NCBI GenBank assembly: GCA_965233175.1 | Contig: CBDDRW010000099.1 | Coordinates: forward strand, 1,121 to 65,120 | From: an uncultured bacterium | Lineage (GTDB): Bacteria; Nitrospirota; Nitrospiria; Nitrospirales; Nitrospiraceae | Length of the DNA: 64,000 nt | Direction of reading: 5' to 3' | Shown: positions 17,617 to 53,828 of the stretch, one piece after another | Layout of the letters: each line of letters starts with the position of its first letter | Position numbering within the stretch: position 1 is the first letter of the stretch | Notes under the pieces: model-generated | The model's database searches: none | Told to the model about the DNA's origin: nothing | The model's input: the letters and a program-made list of their open reading frames with translations, nothing else | Program-made: the position numbers and the translations under genes

Positions 17617-17623
17617 GCGGGGT

Positions 17624-17806
17624 GGAAGGGTGGATCTTTCGGGAGTCGGTATAATGCGTTGGAGAGGGACTGCCAATCTCCCCTTACTGCAAACCGCGTG
17701 CTCCTCTGAAGCGCGACCGAGGGTCGCATGCCGTCGCACAGCGGCACTTCTCTGGCTGTCATCTTCCTGTGCCTGCTATGCCGACTCCCGAAAGATCCAC
17801 CCTTCC
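17624..17806. repeat. 183-bp element bounded by perfect 26-bp inverted repeats (MITE-like or structured RNA)
   Basis: GGAAGGGTGGATCTTTCGGGAGTCGG at 17624-17649 is the exact reverse complement of 17781-17806. Confidence 0.9.
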
Positions 17807-17906
17807 ATCCCGCAAGAAGGAATGGGCGAAAGTGACTGACGGCGCAAATTGCCATCAGCCGCTTTCCGTTTTATTCGGAGAATAAAGTGACTCATTTGAA
17901 ATTGTT

Positions 17907-20681: not shown

Positions 20682-23219
20682 ATGTCATCTAAAGAAAAAA
20701 AACGCGGGCAGACGAAGGAAGTCTCTAAGCCGGCAGAGCCTGCTCAAACGACCGGTACGGCTGAGGACTTTGAGAAACTCGGTGTGTTCTATCTGGGCCG
20801 GCCATACGATCTCGTCGCGAAACAGGCGAGGCCAGGCTGGCTACTCTACGATTCCAAAGACTTGGTCACGCACGCCGTCTGCGTCGGAATGACCGGCAGC
20901 GGGAAGACCGGTCTCTGCATCGGTCTGCTCGAAGAAGCGGCGATCGATGGGATTCCTGCCTTGATCATCGACCCGAAAGGCGATCTCGCCAACCTGATGC
21001 TAAGCTTTCCACAGCTTCGCGGGGAAGATTTTGCACCATGGGTCAACGAGGACGATGCCCGCAAGAAGGGTCTCTCGTCGACCGACTACGCGACCCAGCA
21101 AGCCGACATGTGGAAGAAAGGCTTGGGAGATTGGGGCCAAAGCGGCGAGCGAATTCAAAAACTCCGCGATGCGGCCGATGTGGTGGTCTACACGCCTGGC
21201 AGCAATGCAGGCATTCCTGTGTCTATCCTTAAGTCCTTTGCGGCGCCGTCGCACGAAATTCTGGGCGATCCTGAGATGTTGCGCGAGCGGATCAGCACGA
21301 CGGTCACGAGTCTGTTGGGTCTCATCGGCGTCGAGGCCGACCCGATCAAAAGCCGCGAACACATTCTGCTCTCGACGATTCTCGGCCATGCATGGAAGGC
21401 AGGACAGGATCTGGATCTCGCTACATTGATCCAGCAGATCCAGACGCCGCCAGTTTCCAAGATTGGGGTGTTGGGTCTGGATTCGTTCTATCCCTCAAAG
21501 GAACGCTTTGCTCTCGCCATGCAGCTGAATAACTTATTAGCCTCACCGGGATTTTCTGCCTGGTTGGAAGGTGACGCGCTCGACGTGGATCAGATGCTCC
21601 ATTCGCCTGGAGGCAAGCCGCGGCTCGCCATTTTTTCGATCGCACATCTCAACGATGCAGAACGCATGTTTTTTGTCACATTGCTGCTAAGCCAAACGCT
21701 TGGCTGGGTGCGGGCACAGTCCGGAACGACCAGCCTCCGTGCCATCCTCTATATGGACGAAATCTTCGGCTATTTCCCACCCGTTGCCAATCCGCCGTCG
21801 AAGCAACCCTTGCTTACGTTGTTGAAGCAGGCCCGCGCGTTCGGTCTAGGCGTAGTGTTGGCGACACAGAATCCCGTTGATCTGGACTACAAAGGCTTGG
21901 CCAATACCGGTACCTGGTTCATTGGACGCCTGCAAACTGAACGAGATAAGGCGCGCGTATTGGAAGGATTAGAGGGTGCCGCCGCAAGTAGCGGAAAAAA
22001 GTTCGATAAACAGGCGATGGAACAGACTCTGGCCGGTTTAGGCAATCGTGTGTTTCTCTTGAACAATGTGCATGAAGATGCACCGGAAATCTTTCAGACA
22101 CGATGGACTCTCTCATACCTTCGAGGACCCCTCACGCGGACGCAGATCAAGACCCTCATGGATCCCGTGAAGCGTGAAACGTTAAATGTAAAACGTGAAA
22201 CGTCTGACACCTTTCGCTCAGCACTCAGCACTCAGCACTCAGTTCTCAGCACTCAGTTCTCAGCACTCCAAGCTCGTCCCATGCTCCCACCCGATGTGCC
22301 GCAGCATTTTACCCCTGTACGAGGGAGACAACCGAATGGCAGCACGTTGGTCTACCAGCCGATGTTGCTCGGTGCGGCACAGGTACGCGTATCAGACAGC
22401 AAGGCCGGCGTCGATGTAACGCAAAATGTGGCGGTGCTTGCACCGATCTCGGATGGTGCGGTGGCGGTAGACTGGGGTCAGGCCATGGAAGCGGGCTTGG
22501 ACGTGGCTGATCTGGAGTCGGTGCCCGCAGATAGTGCGCAGTTCGGTGCAATTCCCAGTGCAGCAAGCAAAACAAAAAGCTATGAGACGTGGCGCAAGGA
22601 TTTTACCGGCTGGTTGTTTCGAAATCAGAAAGTCGATCTCTTCAAAAGCCCCAGTACAAAAGAAGTCTCCTTGCCCGGTGAATCTGAGCGAGACTTCCGT
22701 GTGCGGCTGCAGCAATCCGGCCGTGAAGCACGGGACAAACAATCGGATAGCCTGCGTCAAAAATACGCACCGAAGATTGCCGCCCTGCAAGATCGGATCA
22801 GGCGCGCAGGACACATGGTCGAACGGCAACAAGCAGAATCTCGTTCCAGTCAAATGCAAGCGGCGATTTCTGTGGGCGCCTCAATTCTCGGTGCGTTTCT
22901 GGGAAGAAAAACGATCAGCGCGACGAACATCGGCCGCGCGGCTACTGCGATTCGTGGGGCAGGACGTGCGATCAAAGAATCGAAGGATGTGGGGCAAGCT
23001 GAAGAGAATGTCTCAGCGCTCCAGCAGCAACTGGCCGACCTCGAATCTCAGTTTAAGATGGAGACCGATGCCCTCGCTGCCGCAACCGATCCCCTCACCG
23101 AGACATTCGACACCGTCTCTCTCAAACCCACCAAGGCCAACATCGCCGTGAAACTCGTCGCCCTTGCCTGGACACCTCATTGGCAGGACGGGAGGGGTGT
23201 GCTGACACCGGCTTGGTAA
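20682..23219 (+). CDS. HerA/FtsK-superfamily (DUF87/DUF853-like) P-loop ATPase with a long C-terminal extension
   Basis: Walker A GMTGSGKTG followed by IIDPKGDL; Walker B ILYMDEIFGYF; LATQNPVDLDYK. C-terminal coiled-coil-like region. Confidence 0.85.
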   Translation: MSSKEKKRGQTKEVSKPAEPAQTTGTAEDFEKLGVFYLGRPYDLVAKQARPGWLLYDSKDLVTHAVCVGMTGSGKTGLCIGLLEEAAIDGIPALIIDPKGDLANLMLSFPQLRGEDFAPWVNEDDARKKGLSSTDYATQQADMWKKGLGDWGQSGERIQKLRDAADVVVYTPGSNAGIPVSILKSFAAPSHEILGDPEMLRERISTTVTSLLGLIGVEADPIKSREHILLSTILGHAWKAGQDLDLATLIQQIQTPPVSKIGVLGLDSFYPSKERFALAMQLNNLLASPGFSAWLEGDALDVDQMLHSPGGKPRLAIFSIAHLNDAERMFFVTLLLSQTLGWVRAQSGTTSLRAILYMDEIFGYFPPVANPPSKQPLLTLLKQARAFGLGVVLATQNPVDLDYKGLANTGTWFIGRLQTERDKARVLEGLEGAAASSGKKFDKQAMEQTLAGLGNRVFLLNNVHEDAPEIFQTRWTLSYLRGPLTRTQIKTLMDPVKRETLNVKRETSDTFRSALSTQHSVLSTQFSALQARPMLPPDVPQHFTPVRGRQPNGSTLVYQPMLLGAAQVRVSDSKAGVDVTQNVAVLAPISDGAVAVDWGQAMEAGLDVADLESVPADSAQFGAIPSAASKTKSYETWRKDFTGWLFRNQKVDLFKSPSTKEVSLPGESERDFRVRLQQSGREARDKQSDSLRQKYAPKIAALQDRIRRAGHMVERQQAESRSSQMQAAISVGASILGAFLGRKTISATNIGRAATAIRGAGRAIKESKDVGQAEENVSALQQQLADLESQFKMETDALAAATDPLTETFDTVSLKPTKANIAVKLVALAWTPHWQDGRGVLTPAW

Positions 23220-33372: not shown

Positions 33373-33541
33373 GCGCAGCTCCTTGAATAGAGAAAAACAG
33401 GGGATGAGATACCTAGCATGAACCGCGGGGGGAGGGAAAGAGGTACGCGACGTGTGACTTAGGAGACTGCGGAAAAACTCGATTTATACAAAAATGCCGT
33501 TGGAATCTTTTTCTTATGGCGCTGATGTTAAAACAGTTTCA

Positions 33542-33659
33542 GGATGCTCAAAAAGGCCGTTCAGCAAGGCCGCAGCGAGCGAAGAGGCGAGGCGTACGCT
33601 TCGGTACGTTGAGCCTCTGAGCGACGCGAGAACGCCGCTGGCGGACTTTTTCAGCATCC
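33542..33659. repeat. 118-bp imperfect-palindrome repeat element, copy 1
   Basis: GGATGCTCAAAAA...TTTTTCAGCATCC termini. About 90 percent identical by eye to 46019-46136. It ends 2 nt from the stop codon of the gene at 33662. Confidence 0.9.
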
Positions 33660-33661
33660 TG

Positions 33662-34060
33662 TTAGACGATCTTGACGTCTAATGGGCGCTCGATAAGTTC
33701 AACTTCGTATCCGTCCGGGGCATCAATGAAAATGAAGCGGCTGCCGGAGGATGTCCGCGTCGGGCCGTCTGTCACCTTGATACCTTTGGCATTGAGTGAC
33801 GCAATGGTGTCGTCGAGGTTCTCTACCTGAAACGCGAGATGGATGAGATCTTCCTGCACTGTGACTGGTCCGCTCGGCGGAAAACTGGTCAGCTCGATCA
33901 GTTCCTCGCTGTTGGGTACCTTGAGAAAGGCCAGGTGCGAACCACGCGGCGACGTCTTCCGCTCCAGCACCTCAAGCCCGAGCACATCCGTATAGAACTG
34001 GATCGTCTGTTCCATGTCGCTGACCCGCATGCGGGTGTGGAGAAGCTTTTTGACTTGCAT
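33662..34060 (-). CDS. VOC/glyoxalase I family protein
   Basis: HTRMRVSDMEQTIQFY...LAF...ELIE pattern of the glyoxalase fold. Confidence 0.8.
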   Translation of the reverse strand: MQVKKLLHTRMRVSDMEQTIQFYTDVLGLEVLERKTSPRGSHLAFLKVPNSEELIELTSFPPSGPVTVQEDLIHLAFQVENLDDTIASLNAKGIKVTDGPTRTSSGSRFIFIDAPDGYEVELIERPLDVKIV

Positions 34061-35254: not shown

Positions 35255-35500
35255 GGTGATGAGTATACCCGATCCGGAGGCTTCGGAAAAAACGATTGTA
35301 CGTTGAGGGTCTCGACGATGCGAGAACGACGCAGAGGAAAAGGTGCGTCCCTGGGCAAGGAGGCTGTCTTGGCAGACTCAGGGCGGGCGGGTGACATAGT
35401 CGCCAGGGTCGCAAGGGTGGGAAGGGAGACTTTTTCAGCAGCCTGTACGGAGGTGAGTCTGCCGTTGACGCTGGAATTCCCCTACTGTTACGGTGAAGCC

Positions 35501-36652
35501 ATGGCGTTGCCTAATTGGAAAATCGGCCGGGCGCTTGGCATCCCGATTCACCTGCATGCCTCCTGGTTTGCCGTATTCTTCTTTGTCACCTGGTCATTAG
35601 CAACAGGCTATTTACCCGACACACTGCCTGGTCTATCGGCACCACGCTATTGGGGAATGGGTGGTATTGCTGCCCTCCTGTTGTTTCTCTCTGTCCTTCT
35701 GCATGAACTAGGACATTCGTATGTGGCGCTGCGCTATCAGATCCCCATCAGACAGATTACCTTGTTCATTTTCGGGGGGATGGCGCACATGGGGAAGGAG
35801 CCTCCCAGTCCGCGGGCCGAGTTTTTGATCGCAATGGCGGGGCCACTCGTCAGCTTGATCCTGGGAGCCGTTTGTCTCGGCGGAGCCATGGCCATGGAGT
35901 CAATATTTTCACAACCAGGCATGAAAGGGCTCATCGTCCTTGGGAGTCTACTGGGAATGGTGAATATGCAGCTTGGACTGTTCAATCTGATCCCGGGGTT
36001 TCCGCTAGACGGAGGGCGGGTGTTACGGGCTGGCCTGTGGGCCCGAAACAAGGATTTTCATCGAGCCACCAGCCAGGCTGCATTTGCGGGAATAGGATTC
36101 GGTATCGCGCTCGGGTTGATCGGTGTGGTCTTGATTGGAGCAGCCTGGTCCGGGATTCTGAGTCAGTCCATCACGACGAACGGGGTTTGGCTCATGTGCA
36201 TTGGCACATTCCTCTTTGTCGCAGCCTTGACACACAAGCGGCAGACAGCCCCGCAGATGTTGTTGACGTCGGTGGCCGTCCGTGAAGTCATGGTCCAGCG
36301 CCTCGTGACCTTGCTGCCGGACATGAGTGTGCAGGACGCGGTCGATCAGTACTTTGTCGCGCAGGGATATGGCGAATTCGCTGTGTGCGAAGAGAGGCAG
36401 ATTCTGGGGGTGATCACAGTGCGAGACGTACAGGCGCTTCCTACGGCCCTCTGGTCATGGCGCCGCGTGCGCGAGATGATGCGCCCGATGTCACCGACGC
36501 TCTGCATCCCTCCGGATTGGTCCGTCATGCAGGCGATGGACCGCATGGCCCAAGCTGGCTTTGATTGTCTCGTGGTGATGGAGAACGGGGAGATGGTTGG
36601 CCTCATCACCCGGTCGGCTATCGCACAGTACGTACAGTTGCATAAAGCGTGA
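35501..36652 (+). CDS. Site-2 (M50) family metalloprotease with tandem CBS domains
   Basis: HELGHS and NLIPGFPLDGG motifs; C-terminal CBS pair. The Met at 35501 (MALPNWKIG) was chosen over the long N-terminal extension. Confidence 0.85.
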   Translation: MALPNWKIGRALGIPIHLHASWFAVFFFVTWSLATGYLPDTLPGLSAPRYWGMGGIAALLLFLSVLLHELGHSYVALRYQIPIRQITLFIFGGMAHMGKEPPSPRAEFLIAMAGPLVSLILGAVCLGGAMAMESIFSQPGMKGLIVLGSLLGMVNMQLGLFNLIPGFPLDGGRVLRAGLWARNKDFHRATSQAAFAGIGFGIALGLIGVVLIGAAWSGILSQSITTNGVWLMCIGTFLFVAALTHKRQTAPQMLLTSVAVREVMVQRLVTLLPDMSVQDAVDQYFVAQGYGEFAVCEERQILGVITVRDVQALPTALWSWRRVREMMRPMSPTLCIPPDWSVMQAMDRMAQAGFDCLVVMENGEMVGLITRSAIAQYVQLHKA

Positions 36653-36746
36653 GGCGTCAAAGGTGAAACGGACAAGGTGGGGGAAACCAGGAGGTTGAAC
36701 GGATTTGTCCTTTCACCTCTTACGTTTCACCTTTTACGCCGTACGC

Positions 36747-38150
36747 TCATTCATTCGCCTTGGAGACGGATATGTTCTGCGCAATAGAAATACGCACCAG
36801 ATGCACCACCAGCAGAAATCCATAGACGACGCAGAAGAACTTGAACGTCGCGCGGTAGAAATCCGATAGGAGGATGGGAAGACAGAGGGCAAAGAGGAGA
36901 CTTGCGATCAGCGTCATGAAGGTCAGCCGTTTACAGAATTCATGGGAGGCTTCCCGCCCGATCTGTTTCAGGGCGCGGGCATACCGATCGGCTCGTTGAA
37001 GTTTGGCTGCTTTCAAGGCTCCTTCCGCCGCACCCCAATAGCGTAAATAGCCATAGCCAACCAGGATCAACAGCCAAGGTGCTGCCCACAAAGGCCAATA
37101 GGTTGGACCTCCGTATGTTTCACTGGCAAGCAGGGCAGCGAAGGAGGGGGCATAGAGCAACCCCAACACCAGCGGCAGAATGCGCTCATCGTTCGGACGC
37201 TCACCCTCCGGTCCTCCATGAATCAGTTCACGCTCAAAGAGCGGATATCCATACTTGAGCACGACAAGCGCGATCGCTGCACTCATGGTTTTATCCGGAA
37301 CATAGCGAATCCAGTTCTGAAACCAGTTCACGATCCACCAACTCAGACTGTCACCCCACGTCAACCCAAAGAGGGAGTCGAGATAGAGATGCGCCGTCTG
37401 TTCCCATTTGAGCACACGCTGGCTCACGGACTCGGCCACGTCAGGGTTCAAGGCAAAAATCGTTTGCTCATGCAATGCCGCTTGGATCACAGTTCCCGGC
37501 AAACTCATGACGAGCGCGCCGCCGACACCAAAGATGTACAGGAACCAACCATGGGAGAGAGCGGAATTGCGCCCGGTGCGGAGATAGGTCTGAAAGCCGA
37601 GTTGCCTCGCCATCCAGCCCCAATAGAATGCGCCGGCGATGTTGACCAGCGACCAGGGGAAAATGACCACATCTCCCCCTGTTTCTGGGTACAATAACCA
37701 GTTCACAACGGAATTCGAGAGGAGCGCGACAATGGCCCCCCACCAGGGGCCCAAGAGAAACGCCACGAGTGCTGTTCCTGTCATATCGAGAAACAGGATA
37801 CTCTCCAAATGCCGGCTCAACGTCAGCCCAATGTAGTTGAGCAGCAGGCCTGCTGCGACGATGACGCTGGTTTCGTACAAGAGCAGATAGGAAACCCCTC
37901 GGAGGGGTTTTGATGAAAAAAACCCGGTCGTCGAAGGCGAGTCAGCAGTCGCACGCTCGATTGGGGACGGCGATTTTCGTTCCTTCTTCGATGTCAGCGA
38001 CGTAAAACGGGCTTTGACTTCGAGTAGCTTCTCCAGAAGAGTCAATACCGTCGCGATGAAGCCAACGACAGTGCCGCCAAGCATGAGCATGTCTTTGCTG
38101 AAATCGTCGAGCATGAAGCGGCTCCTTGTATCGGGTGCTATTGTAGCCAC
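36747..38150 (-). CDS. Polytopic membrane protein, function unknown
   Basis: At least 8 hydrophobic segments; no motif recognised. Confidence 0.6.
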   Translation of the reverse strand: MATIAPDTRSRFMLDDFSKDMLMLGGTVVGFIATVLTLLEKLLEVKARFTSLTSKKERKSPSPIERATADSPSTTGFFSSKPLRGVSYLLLYETSVIVAAGLLLNYIGLTLSRHLESILFLDMTGTALVAFLLGPWWGAIVALLSNSVVNWLLYPETGGDVVIFPWSLVNIAGAFYWGWMARQLGFQTYLRTGRNSALSHGWFLYIFGVGGALVMSLPGTVIQAALHEQTIFALNPDVAESVSQRVLKWEQTAHLYLDSLFGLTWGDSLSWWIVNWFQNWIRYVPDKTMSAAIALVVLKYGYPLFERELIHGGPEGERPNDERILPLVLGLLYAPSFAALLASETYGGPTYWPLWAAPWLLILVGYGYLRYWGAAEGALKAAKLQRADRYARALKQIGREASHEFCKRLTFMTLIASLLFALCLPILLSDFYRATFKFFCVVYGFLLVVHLVRISIAQNISVSKANE

Positions 38151-45910: not shown

Positions 45911-46018
45911 GATGATCCGGTCCGTGTCTTCTGTCTGTTTATTCGCCGCTCTTGTGTATCTCGTTGATTTCGATGTCTGTGTCTCTTACCTCAAAACGAA
46001 CGGCGCGCACAGATCGCC

Positions 46019-46136
46019 GGATGCTCAAAAATGCCGTCCAGCGCGGTCGCAGCAAGCGAAGAGGTGAGGCGTACGCTTCGGTACGTTGAGCCTCTGAGCG
46101 ATGCGAGAACAACGTTGGCGGACTTTTTCAGCATCC
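46019..46136. repeat. 118-bp imperfect-palindrome repeat element, copy 2 (inside the nuo operon)
   Basis: Same termini and core as 33542-33659. It ends 2 nt from the nuoH stop codon. Confidence 0.9.
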
Positions 46137-46138
46137 TG

Positions 46139-47263
46139 TTAACCCCTCGGAAAGAAATACAGAGTAATCGACGTGATGATGATGTTCGCCAATGCGATCG
46201 GCAGCATGACCTTCCAGCCGAACCGCATCAATTGATCGTAGCGCAGCCTGGGCAACGTTGCTCGTATCCAAATGAACAAGAAGAGGAAAAAATACACTTT
46301 CGCCGCAAACCAGATGATGTGTTCTATCCAGGACAGCTGTTCGAGGCCGACATACTCGAAGATCGTGCCAGGATAGGGGGCGTTCCAGCCGCCCAAGAAC
46401 AGCGCGGCAGCGACGCAAGACACGAGAGTCATATTGGCGTATTCAGCGCTGACGAAGAAGGCGAACCGCATACCGCTATATTCCGTAAAAAATCCAGCTA
46501 CAAGTTCACTTTCCGCTTCCGGCAGATCGAATGGGATACGGTTCGTCTCGGCCACGGCAGAAATGATGAAGACGACAAAGGCGAAAATTTGAGTGTGGAT
46601 CGGGAAGAATCCGTCAGGACGGCCTCCCCAAATGAACCAATGCCAGAATCCGCCCGCCTGAGCCTCTGTGATTTGCACCAGACTGAGGGTGCCCGCCAAC
46701 AGCAGCACGCCGACGAGCGCCAGCCCGACGTTTAACTCGTAGCTGATGACCTGGGCTGCGGCACGCAAACCTCCCAGCAATGAATATTTGCTGTTGGAGG
46801 CCCAACCTCCCAGAATAATACCGTAGGCGCCGATCGAGGCAATCGCCAGAATATACAAGACCCCGATATTGATGTCGGCGACGACGAAGGGCTTGATCGT
46901 CATCCCAAAAACGTCCAAGGTCAAATTCGGGCCGAATGGAATGACGGCAAATCCGATCATAGACACGACCATCGTCAGCATTGGTGCCAGAGCAAACATC
47001 GCCTTGTTCGCGCCGGCCGGCACAATGTCTTCTTTAAAGAATAATTTGATGCCGTCGGCAACCGGTTGGAGAAGTCCGTACGGACCGACTTCCATCGGGC
47101 CCATACGATCCTGCATCCAGCCAAGCACCTTCCGCTCGAAATAGGTCAAGGTCGCGACCGTGATCATTACAATGCTCATCTCTGCCAGTATCTGGGCGAA
47201 CGAAACCGCGAGCCGCAAGCTTAACTCCGTCACGACAACACTCCCGGATGACAAATAGAACAC
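46139..47263 (-). CDS. nuoH: NADH-quinone oxidoreductase subunit H
   Basis: FERKVLGWMQDRMGPMEVGPYGLLQPVADGIKLFFKED; GTG start. Confidence 0.92.
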   Translation of the reverse strand: MFYLSSGSVVVTELSLRLAVSFAQILAEMSIVMITVATLTYFERKVLGWMQDRMGPMEVGPYGLLQPVADGIKLFFKEDIVPAGANKAMFALAPMLTMVVSMIGFAVIPFGPNLTLDVFGMTIKPFVVADINIGVLYILAIASIGAYGIILGGWASNSKYSLLGGLRAAAQVISYELNVGLALVGVLLLAGTLSLVQITEAQAGGFWHWFIWGGRPDGFFPIHTQIFAFVVFIISAVAETNRIPFDLPEAESELVAGFFTEYSGMRFAFFVSAEYANMTLVSCVAAALFLGGWNAPYPGTIFEYVGLEQLSWIEHIIWFAAKVYFFLFLFIWIRATLPRLRYDQLMRFGWKVMLPIALANIIITSITLYFFPRG

Positions 47264-51266: not shown

Positions 51267-51339
51267 AAATTCAGCGTGAAACGTAAAAAGTGAAAGGTGA
51301 AAGGCTGTCAGAGCTCCGTATTCCAGTACATCCCACGTT

Positions 51340-53725: not shown

Positions 53726-53828
53726 AATCGCCGTTACACGTCAGACGTAACATGTGAAACGTGAGAGTTGTGAGAACCGTGCGATTGTGCCGTCCCCCAC
53801 ACCTCACTTCTCTTTCGAATCTTCTGGC

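Follow-up and report, generated by a model that had tools for sequence, protein, structure and literature searches.

The window, that is the whole 64-kb stretch of Nitrospiraceae DNA analysed here, contains three relatives of one palindromic sequence. The first (copy 1) lies upstream of dapF, in the spacer between this gene and a minus-strand gene encoding a 132-aa glyoxalase/VOC protein (33662-34060), and the second (copy 2) lies at the end of minus-strand nuoH (46139-47263). The third is a mosaic at 35277-35445. A sequence-only reading of the window had described copies 1 and 2 as a 118-nt repeat pair (33542-33659 and 46019-46136), and this pair is real, its members differing at 11 sites (90.7% identity, blastn E 3e-38). 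The similarity, as that reading had it, runs on to a stop codon, extending through TGTTA to give 123 nt at 91% identity, and TTA at 33662-33664 and 46139-46141 is indeed the complement of the TAA stops of the two minus-strand ORFs. The palindrome itself is 122 nt in length, CAGG...CCTG (CAGGATGCTCAAAAAGG...CTTTTTCAGCATCCTG), and occupies 33540-33661 and 46017-46138. Folding of both copies bore out a single long imperfect hairpin with the apex CGTAC-GCTTCG-GTACG, with plus-strand energies of -62.1 kcal/mol for copy 1 (z -5.7, 0 of 200 shuffles as good) and -60.4 kcal/mol for copy 2 (z -6.6). The minus strands of both copies fold approximately 10-13 kcal/mol worse, at -52.7 and -47.2 kcal/mol respectively. 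[quoted passage not shown]

33459-33462, plus strand: left TSD of copy 1 (TTAG), identical to 33662-33665; the empty alleles of contigs L206 and L207 have a single 4-mer at this place.
33463-33482, plus strand: TIR-L of copy 1, GAGACTGCGGAAAAACTCGA, with 2 mismatches to the family consensus 18-mer CAGGCTGCGGAAAAACTC.
33463-33539, plus strand: 77-nt left module of copy 1, family B type (..GTTGGAATCTT..ATGGCGCTGATGT..), with homologues in other genomes.
33540-33661, plus strand: 122-nt hairpin module of copy 1, from folding, the nhmmer family model, and alignment with pair counts.
33540-33559, plus strand: internal inverted copy of the TIR, forming the left arm of the copy 1 hairpin.
33642-33661, plus strand: TIR-R, the right arm end of the copy 1 hairpin.
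33662-33665, plus strand: right TSD of copy 1 (TTAG), of which 33662-33664 is the TAA stop of the glyoxalase/VOC gene.
35277-35445, plus strand: copy 3, a mosaic (family D3), between divergent deacetylase and M50 peptidase genes.
46017-46138, plus strand: copy 2, a hairpin-only short form (CCGGATGC...GCATCCTG), in the nuoH-nuoI spacer within the nuo operon.
46139-46142, plus strand: TTAA adjoining copy 2, of which 46139-46141 is the TAA stop of nuoH.

The palindrome belongs to a family far larger than the two copies first noted. The exact 21-nt apex CGTACGCTTCGGTACGTTGAG was present in at least 118 stretches from at least 65 assemblies of a species-representative genome collection, and a profile built from clean copies and searched with nhmmer against the listed apex-bearing loci gave 176 matches, of which 131 were full length. 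With the 21-mer of the search query left out, pairwise identity between copies of different species averaged 90%. Among the matches listed, all but one contig carried the label Nitrospira, Nitrospiraceae, Nitrospirales or Nitrospirota. The exception, a 4.6-kb contig with the element (L023, CAZUGP010000029.1), was binned as an Acidobacteriota MAG and is probably misbinned Nitrospira. No viral contig or plasmid carried the element, and carriage by phage or plasmid was rejected on this basis. Rfam 15 gave no match at gathering score anywhere in the window, and a literature search returned nothing specific to this Nitrospira element.

Alignment of left flanks revealed that most copies carry an extra module of approximately 76 nt, starting CAGGCTGCGGAAAAACTCGG and usually preceded by CTAG, the start of which lies 74-78 nt left of the hairpin in about 52-53 of 57 long-form copies. 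This long form, of approximately 198 nt, consists of an 18-20-bp TIR-L, approximately 56 nt of module and then the 122-nt hairpin, whilst the short form is the hairpin without the left module. The TIR-L consensus CAGGCTGCGGAAAAACTC has its counterpart in CAGGATGCTGAAAAAGTC, which is TIR-R read on the other strand. When a 20-nt version of the consensus (...GG) is read directly against the reverse-complemented right end, CAGGATGCTGAAAAAGTCCG, 16 of the 20 positions agree. TIR-R makes up the outer arm of the hairpin, and the inner arm repeats the TIR internally in inverted form. For copy 1 the full mobile unit is 199 nt (33463-33661) between TTAG direct repeats. The element is 122-199 nt in size with no coding signature, and each end of the unit carries a terminal inverted repeat. 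Other subfamilies of miniature inverted-repeat element (MITE) were seen with the same terminal repeats, CAGGATGCTGAAAAAG, around unrelated cores such as a GGGGTAGCTGGGACGATCCCC hairpin (L026 910-1118, L064 1359-1646, L050 775-1205 and L082 4239-4423).

The tetranucleotides flanking the long form were compared in other Nitrospira genomes. They were identical at the two ends in 28 of 57 copies, against a mean of 12.5 and a maximum of 22 in 2000 shuffles. Their consensus is YTAR, with CTAG the commonest, followed by TTAG and CTAA, and TTAA the rarest. The outer positions of the 4-mer also agree between ends, position 1 in 45 of 57 copies (29 by shuffle) and position 4 in 48 of 57 (34 by shuffle), and the matched pairs include TTAG/TTAG, GTAG/GTAG and CTAA/CTAA, which excludes a duplication of TA only. 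Copy 1 in the window is itself flanked by TTAG/TTAG. These data demonstrate a 4-bp target-site duplication.

Orthologous sites both with and without the element were found. In the orientation of the glyoxalase gene, the filled allele of copy 1 reads gtcTAA[199 nt]CTAAgtcac (right flank CTAAgtcacacgtcg), and empty alleles are present in L206 (gtcTGAgaccc, gtcTGAgacccacgtcg) and L207 (gtcTGAgcccc, gtcTGAgccccgcatc), whose glyoxalases are 98% and 95% identical, respectively, to the window protein. These relatives lack exactly 199 nt plus one 4-mer, the 77-nt left module being missing along with the hairpin. A contig encoding an identical glyoxalase has a spacer of 85 nt, against 289 nt in the window. 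Elsewhere, L064 is filled (...catCTAG[198 nt]CTAGatcacc) where L026 is empty (...cgtCTACatcacc, CTAC), and L088 is filled where L100 is empty, with a single TTAA and the stop of one gene abutting the ATG of the next. There are thus three filled/empty pairs with exact junctions, two of them from other species with a clean 4-bp duplication, and the copies are both dispersed and polymorphic for presence or absence at orthologous sites. In three of four filled/empty comparisons the 4-mer of the empty allele was not YTAR (CTGA, TGA-type and CTAC), a hint that stops offering a usable site are apt to be filled. The stop is TAA in the filled allele at each of the two window sites and TGA, at the same codon, in the empty alleles of the closest relatives (L124-L134, L206 and L207).

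The interior of the element varies at a fixed insertion site. The insertion seen in the window (33459-33665) recurs, with differing interiors, in contigs whose flanks are identical and whose glyoxalase is either identical or 99% identical: in L119 (2862-3310) the apex is replaced by approximately 100 nt, and in L120 (2862-3360), L205 (1261-1790), L122 and L123 GC-rich modules of approximately 50 nt (TCACCCGCCC..GGCGCGCCGAGACGCGCC) are present in one or both arms, each replacing a few bases. Glyoxalase-dapF spacers of 85, 289, 375, 424 and 460 nt were seen, and the alleles at this site comprise an empty one and others of 199, approximately 285, approximately 334 and approximately 370 nt. All 23 occurrences of the GC-rich module were nested in an arm of the MITE, and an independent mobile element was rejected as its identity, since it is always inside such an arm and replaces few bases. 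Exchange between MITE copies appears to be the likeliest source of the interior variation.

Copies 2 and 3 depart from this pattern. Copy 2 is flanked by TTAA on the nuoH side, with no matching 4-mer at its far end, where CGAT is found (nuoH orientation). None of 26 examinable relatives has the element in the nuoH-nuoI spacer, and the remaining 106 nt of the window spacer, on the nuoI side of copy 2, have homologous sequence in the spacers of relatives, indicating that copy 2 is a hairpin-only short form placed directly after the stop. The 76 nt to its left were considered as a decayed left module, an assignment ruled out by alignment with relatives, in which they are native spacer. A few hairpin-only copies are flanked by YTAR on each side, but with 4-mers that are not identical. 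In other Nitrospira (L129, L133, L136 and L141) the nuoH-nuoI spacers are filled by heptad runs similar to the tandem heptamers CTCAGCA / GCTGAnn at 22215-22260 of the window; L126, L130-L132, L134 and L144 have GGTTTGG.../...CCAAACC palindromic spacers there instead. Copy 3 starts with a TIR-L-like sequence (GAGGCTTCGGAAAAAACG) and has only half of the hairpin core, the right one (GTACGTTGAG..GCGAGAACGACG), together with a module rich in GC (..GGGCGGGCGGGTGA..) and a TIR-R without mismatch (GACTTTTTCAGCAGCCTG); its flanks, TCCG and TACG, are not YTAR. The insertion is common to the related contigs L119-L121; gene-call spacing had suggested an empty allele in these contigs, which was ruled out by an alignment showing the copy in place.

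Proximity to stop codons is a general property of the family. CTA or TTA directly follows the right end in 85 of 131 full-length copies, and of the 129 copies whose right flank was long enough to test, 57 have at precisely this point the terminus of a long opposite-strand ORF. Of the 50 long-form copies with both boundaries defined, 35 lie against a long ORF's stop codon, 14 of them on the left and 25 on the right, with 4 counted on both sides, and since either end can abut a stop, the association belongs to the target site rather than to the hairpin end. It is because the YTAR target is duplicated that the element is so often found flush against TAA and TAG stops. The suggestion that the element supplies or targets the stop codon thus divides: the 4-mer holding the stop is targeted and duplicated, whilst filled and empty alleles do not differ in the codon position at which the gene ends, so that the element neither supplies nor moves the stop. 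Likewise, of a proposed TAA-proximal insertion preference, the proximity to stops stands and the specificity for TAA does not, the target being YTAR with CTAG the commonest form. Stop 4-mers account for approximately 24% of YTAR sites outside genes by rough gene calls, or 14% with a stricter ORF cut-off, so that the observed abutment of approximately 70% exceeds what the available YTAR sites predict by about 3-fold. The simplest reason for this excess would be that insertions into promoters and leaders are removed by purifying selection.

Terminal inverted repeats, the 4-bp duplication, orthologous empty alleles and many dispersed copies together identify a MITE, and the palindrome is, with high confidence, the hairpin module of a non-autonomous DNA transposon of this kind, specific to Nitrospira and targeting YTAR. 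Of the initial classification as a REP/MITE-type element, the MITE half is retained and the REP half dropped on account of the duplication and of a unit reaching beyond the hairpin. The element is a previously undescribed one of the MITE kind. Counting against this reading are the compensatory changes throughout the stem described below, which are not obviously required by a cut-and-paste MITE, the abutment of stops well beyond expectation, the flanks of copies 2 and 3, the former without a far-end duplication and the latter not YTAR, the unequal 4-mers of hairpin-only copies, and the failure to find an autonomous element in the DNA described below.

The mobilizing enzyme is suggested by the target. 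IS5 makes 4-bp YTAR duplications (PMC5009759). The duplications of the Nitrospira element are likewise 4 bp with a YTAR consensus (CTAG, TTAG, CTAA, rarely TTAA), and TIR-R resembles, weakly, the E. coli IS5 end that lies close to where insH1 begins (AGG-TGC-GAAcAAGTCC, score 20, 0.6% of shuffles as high). No autonomous element bounded by CAGGMTGCKGAAAAASTC repeats was found in 1.2 Mb of Nitrospira DNA, in plasmids or in viral contigs; IS copies are often missing from MAGs assembled from short reads. Within the 1.2 Mb of Nitrospira DNA, none of the copies had a transposase, IS5-like or other, beside it, and tblastn with InsH and RayT found nothing there (RayT best E 0.36). ORFs between distant TIR-like pairs in L081 and L020 were examined as transposase candidates and are ordinary genes. 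Since no autonomous partner was found in this material, we infer both mobilization in trans and the assignment to an IS5-family DDE transposase.

In the mechanism proposed, a transposase acting in trans, probably an IS5-family DDE enzyme, would bind the terminal repeats and make a 4-nt staggered cut. Integration into a YTAR tetranucleotide, with duplication of that tetranucleotide, is the step demonstrated here. A TAG or TAA stop with a pyrimidine before it constitutes a YTAR site, and duplication keeps an intact stop beside the gene, such that insertion at the exact gene end does not alter the protein. Insertions elsewhere would tend to be lost and survivors would pile up at stops, at either end of the element. 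Once inserted, the element is a passenger in the transcript or spacer, as in nuoH-nuoI, and probably diversifies through exchange of internal modules with other copies.

The best-surviving alternative is that the hairpin is primarily a functional RNA element placed after stop codons, for instance stabilizing 3' ends, serving as an RNase III site or modulating termination or translational coupling, with the element domesticated and mobility only its route of spreading. A check for covariation, which the sequence-only reading had proposed, was positive: changes on both sides were seen in 15 of 36 consensus pairs, distributed along the full length of the stem, where shuffling gave 4.0 +/- 1.5 with 0 of 500 as high, although these counts are not phylogenetically independent and arm-to-arm gene conversion could yield them too. 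One-sided changes favour wobble pairs on the plus strand (approximately 81 against 21 cells, again not phylogenetically independent counts). An RNA role would also fit the approximately 90% conservation of the interior across at least 65 species, the 3-fold enrichment at stop codons, the bias among co-directional gene pairs towards the hairpin-first orientation (33 against 11, p = 0.001) and the position of copy 2, which, lying inside the nuo operon, must be transcribed. However, all gene contexts are occupied, with 40 copies between convergent and 12 between divergent genes in addition to the 33 and 11 co-directional ones, the stop may be at either end, and the better-folding plus strand is usually not that of the upstream gene's transcript. 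There is, moreover, no U-tract and no Rfam match, and relatives lack the element at the same sites. A conserved 3'-UTR RNA structure, as had been suggested, is accordingly not needed and fits poorly with an element found in every orientation to genes, including between divergent ones. We consider it unlikely, though not negligibly so, that RNA function is the primary nature of the hairpin; the positive covariation leaves room for a secondary role.

A related proposal is that the hairpin itself is under selection, the family having been co-opted genus-wide as a post-stop-codon module or being mobilized through a hairpin-dependent step not known for IS5-type elements. The stem-wide compensatory changes, the excess of plus-strand wobble pairs and the 90% identity over at least 65 species are cited in its support, and we accord it a small but appreciable chance.

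The remaining alternatives are weaker than these. A MITE of the IS630/Tc1-mariner type, inserting in CTAG and duplicating the central TA alone, would account for CTAG as the commonest flank and TA as its invariant core, but the outer positions of the 4-mer co-vary between the two ends (45 and 48 of 57 copies against 29 and 34 shuffled), and GTAG/GTAG, TTAG/TTAG and CTAA/CTAA pairs would need non-complementary, copy-specific terminal bases; such an origin is improbable. Still less probable is a REPIN-type element, in which two inverted REPs are mobilized by a RAYT via single-stranded DNA. The similar size (approximately 120 nt), the hairpin shape, the extragenic position at gene ends and the maintained pairing all recall REPINs, and against these stand the 4-bp target-site duplication, the true TIRs on a unit reaching beyond the hairpin and the failure to find a RAYT-like ORF in the 1.2 Mb (E. 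coli RayT as above). To our knowledge, REP and REPIN elements make no target duplication.

An intrinsic terminator, or a terminator-plus-promoter cassette for flanking genes, is equally hard to sustain. The hairpin is strong, lies right after stops and is found in 40 cases between convergent genes, but the GC-rich stem is followed by no T-run on either strand, a terminator scan found no site at either window copy, and copy 2 lies between nuoH and nuoI, which need to be co-expressed. The best sigma-70 matches in the left module averaged 7.4-7.5 of 12, against 7.4 in shuffled sequence, at scattered positions. The left module was accordingly rejected as an outward or inward sigma-70 promoter, as the TTGACA and TAAGAT-like hexamers of some copies are at shuffle level and scans of the window were empty.

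Least credible of all is a small protein, either of 22 aa on the plus strand (MLKKAVQQGRSERRGEAYASVR) or from a minus-strand ORF of at least 39 codons: an ATG does stand at the same place in both arms, 67 of 80 copies keep the 22-codon plus frame intact, and the minus frame stays open through the hairpin in 70 of 80, but these open frames are a consequence of the conserved palindrome, variation is even over codon positions (0.056/0.042/0.056 and 0.067/0.051/0.054), the start codon is gone in 7 to 9 of 80 copies (approximately 10%), and AGGA directly against the ATG leaves no usable ribosome-binding spacing. The original statement that the repeat has no coding capacity therefore holds. An integron attC site was also discounted: such sites have GTTRRRY cores and end the mobile gene cassettes of arrays beside an integrase, whereas the copies flank housekeeping genes scattered over the genome (nuoH/nuoI, dapF, VOC) and have YTAR, with no conserved GTTRRRY, as right flank.

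Among known systems the element most resembles IS5-group-derived MITEs, which are likewise short and non-coding, with TIRs of approximately 18-20 bp, a 4-bp YTAR duplication favouring CTAG, many dispersed copies and empty orthologous sites, the terminal repeat being weakly like an IS5 end. It differs from them in that no parent IS was found, one end is a 122-nt hairpin formed with an internal inverted repeat copy, the interior is highly conserved genus-wide and modules are exchanged between copies. Correia elements (CREE/NEMIS) of Neisseria are MITEs of approximately 100-155 bp with TIRs and a TA-containing target, abundant beside genes and co-transcribed to form long hairpins in mRNA, with known promoter and RNase III effects. 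The Nitrospira element is similarly a small, TIR-bearing, gene-adjacent and hairpin-forming MITE with a TA-containing target, whereas its sequence is unrelated, its duplication is of 4 bp rather than of TA only, and it has no promoter signal. ERIC/IRU sequences of enterobacteria are imperfect palindromes of approximately 127 bp found in transcribed intergenic regions, including inside operons. The likeness lies in this palindromic form of similar size and in the intergenic location, also within operons; sequence and host are unrelated, and a target duplication and an extra left module belong to the Nitrospira element only. With REP/REPIN elements it shares extragenic gene-end hairpins in which pairing is kept, and differs from them in its target-site duplication and in that no RAYT was found.

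Other repeats were observed in the window. Another family of short repeats has GTGAAACGT / GTGAAAGGTGAAA as its basis (22171-22200, 36646-36747, 51273-51302 and 53737-53766), the 36646-36747 member having 34-nt inverted arms just past a gene end, and its motif also flanks MITE copies in L038 and L113. A 37-nt inverted repeat (17617-17653 / 17777-17813, 95% complementary, 123 nt between arms) was unique in the DNA compared.

In soils, waters and treatment plants, Nitrospira are the main nitrite oxidizers and complete ammonia oxidizers, and their genomes are mostly fragmented MAGs. A repeat of 120-200 nt present in many copies per genome, with three in the 64 kb of the window, accounts for spurious small ORFs and, probably, for some assembly breaks. 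Presence or absence at fixed sites, together with module variation, provides a strain-level marker of use for typing and annotation. Insertion between tightly coupled genes and in operons such as nuo may alter expression. Were the hairpin co-opted, it might for example protect or process mRNA 3' ends or uncouple tightly packed genes, and under either version of selection on the hairpin usable YTAR stop sites would tend to become occupied. As a Nitrospira MITE, the element offers a clean natural case in which a YTAR preference makes stop codons safe landing sites for a transposon.
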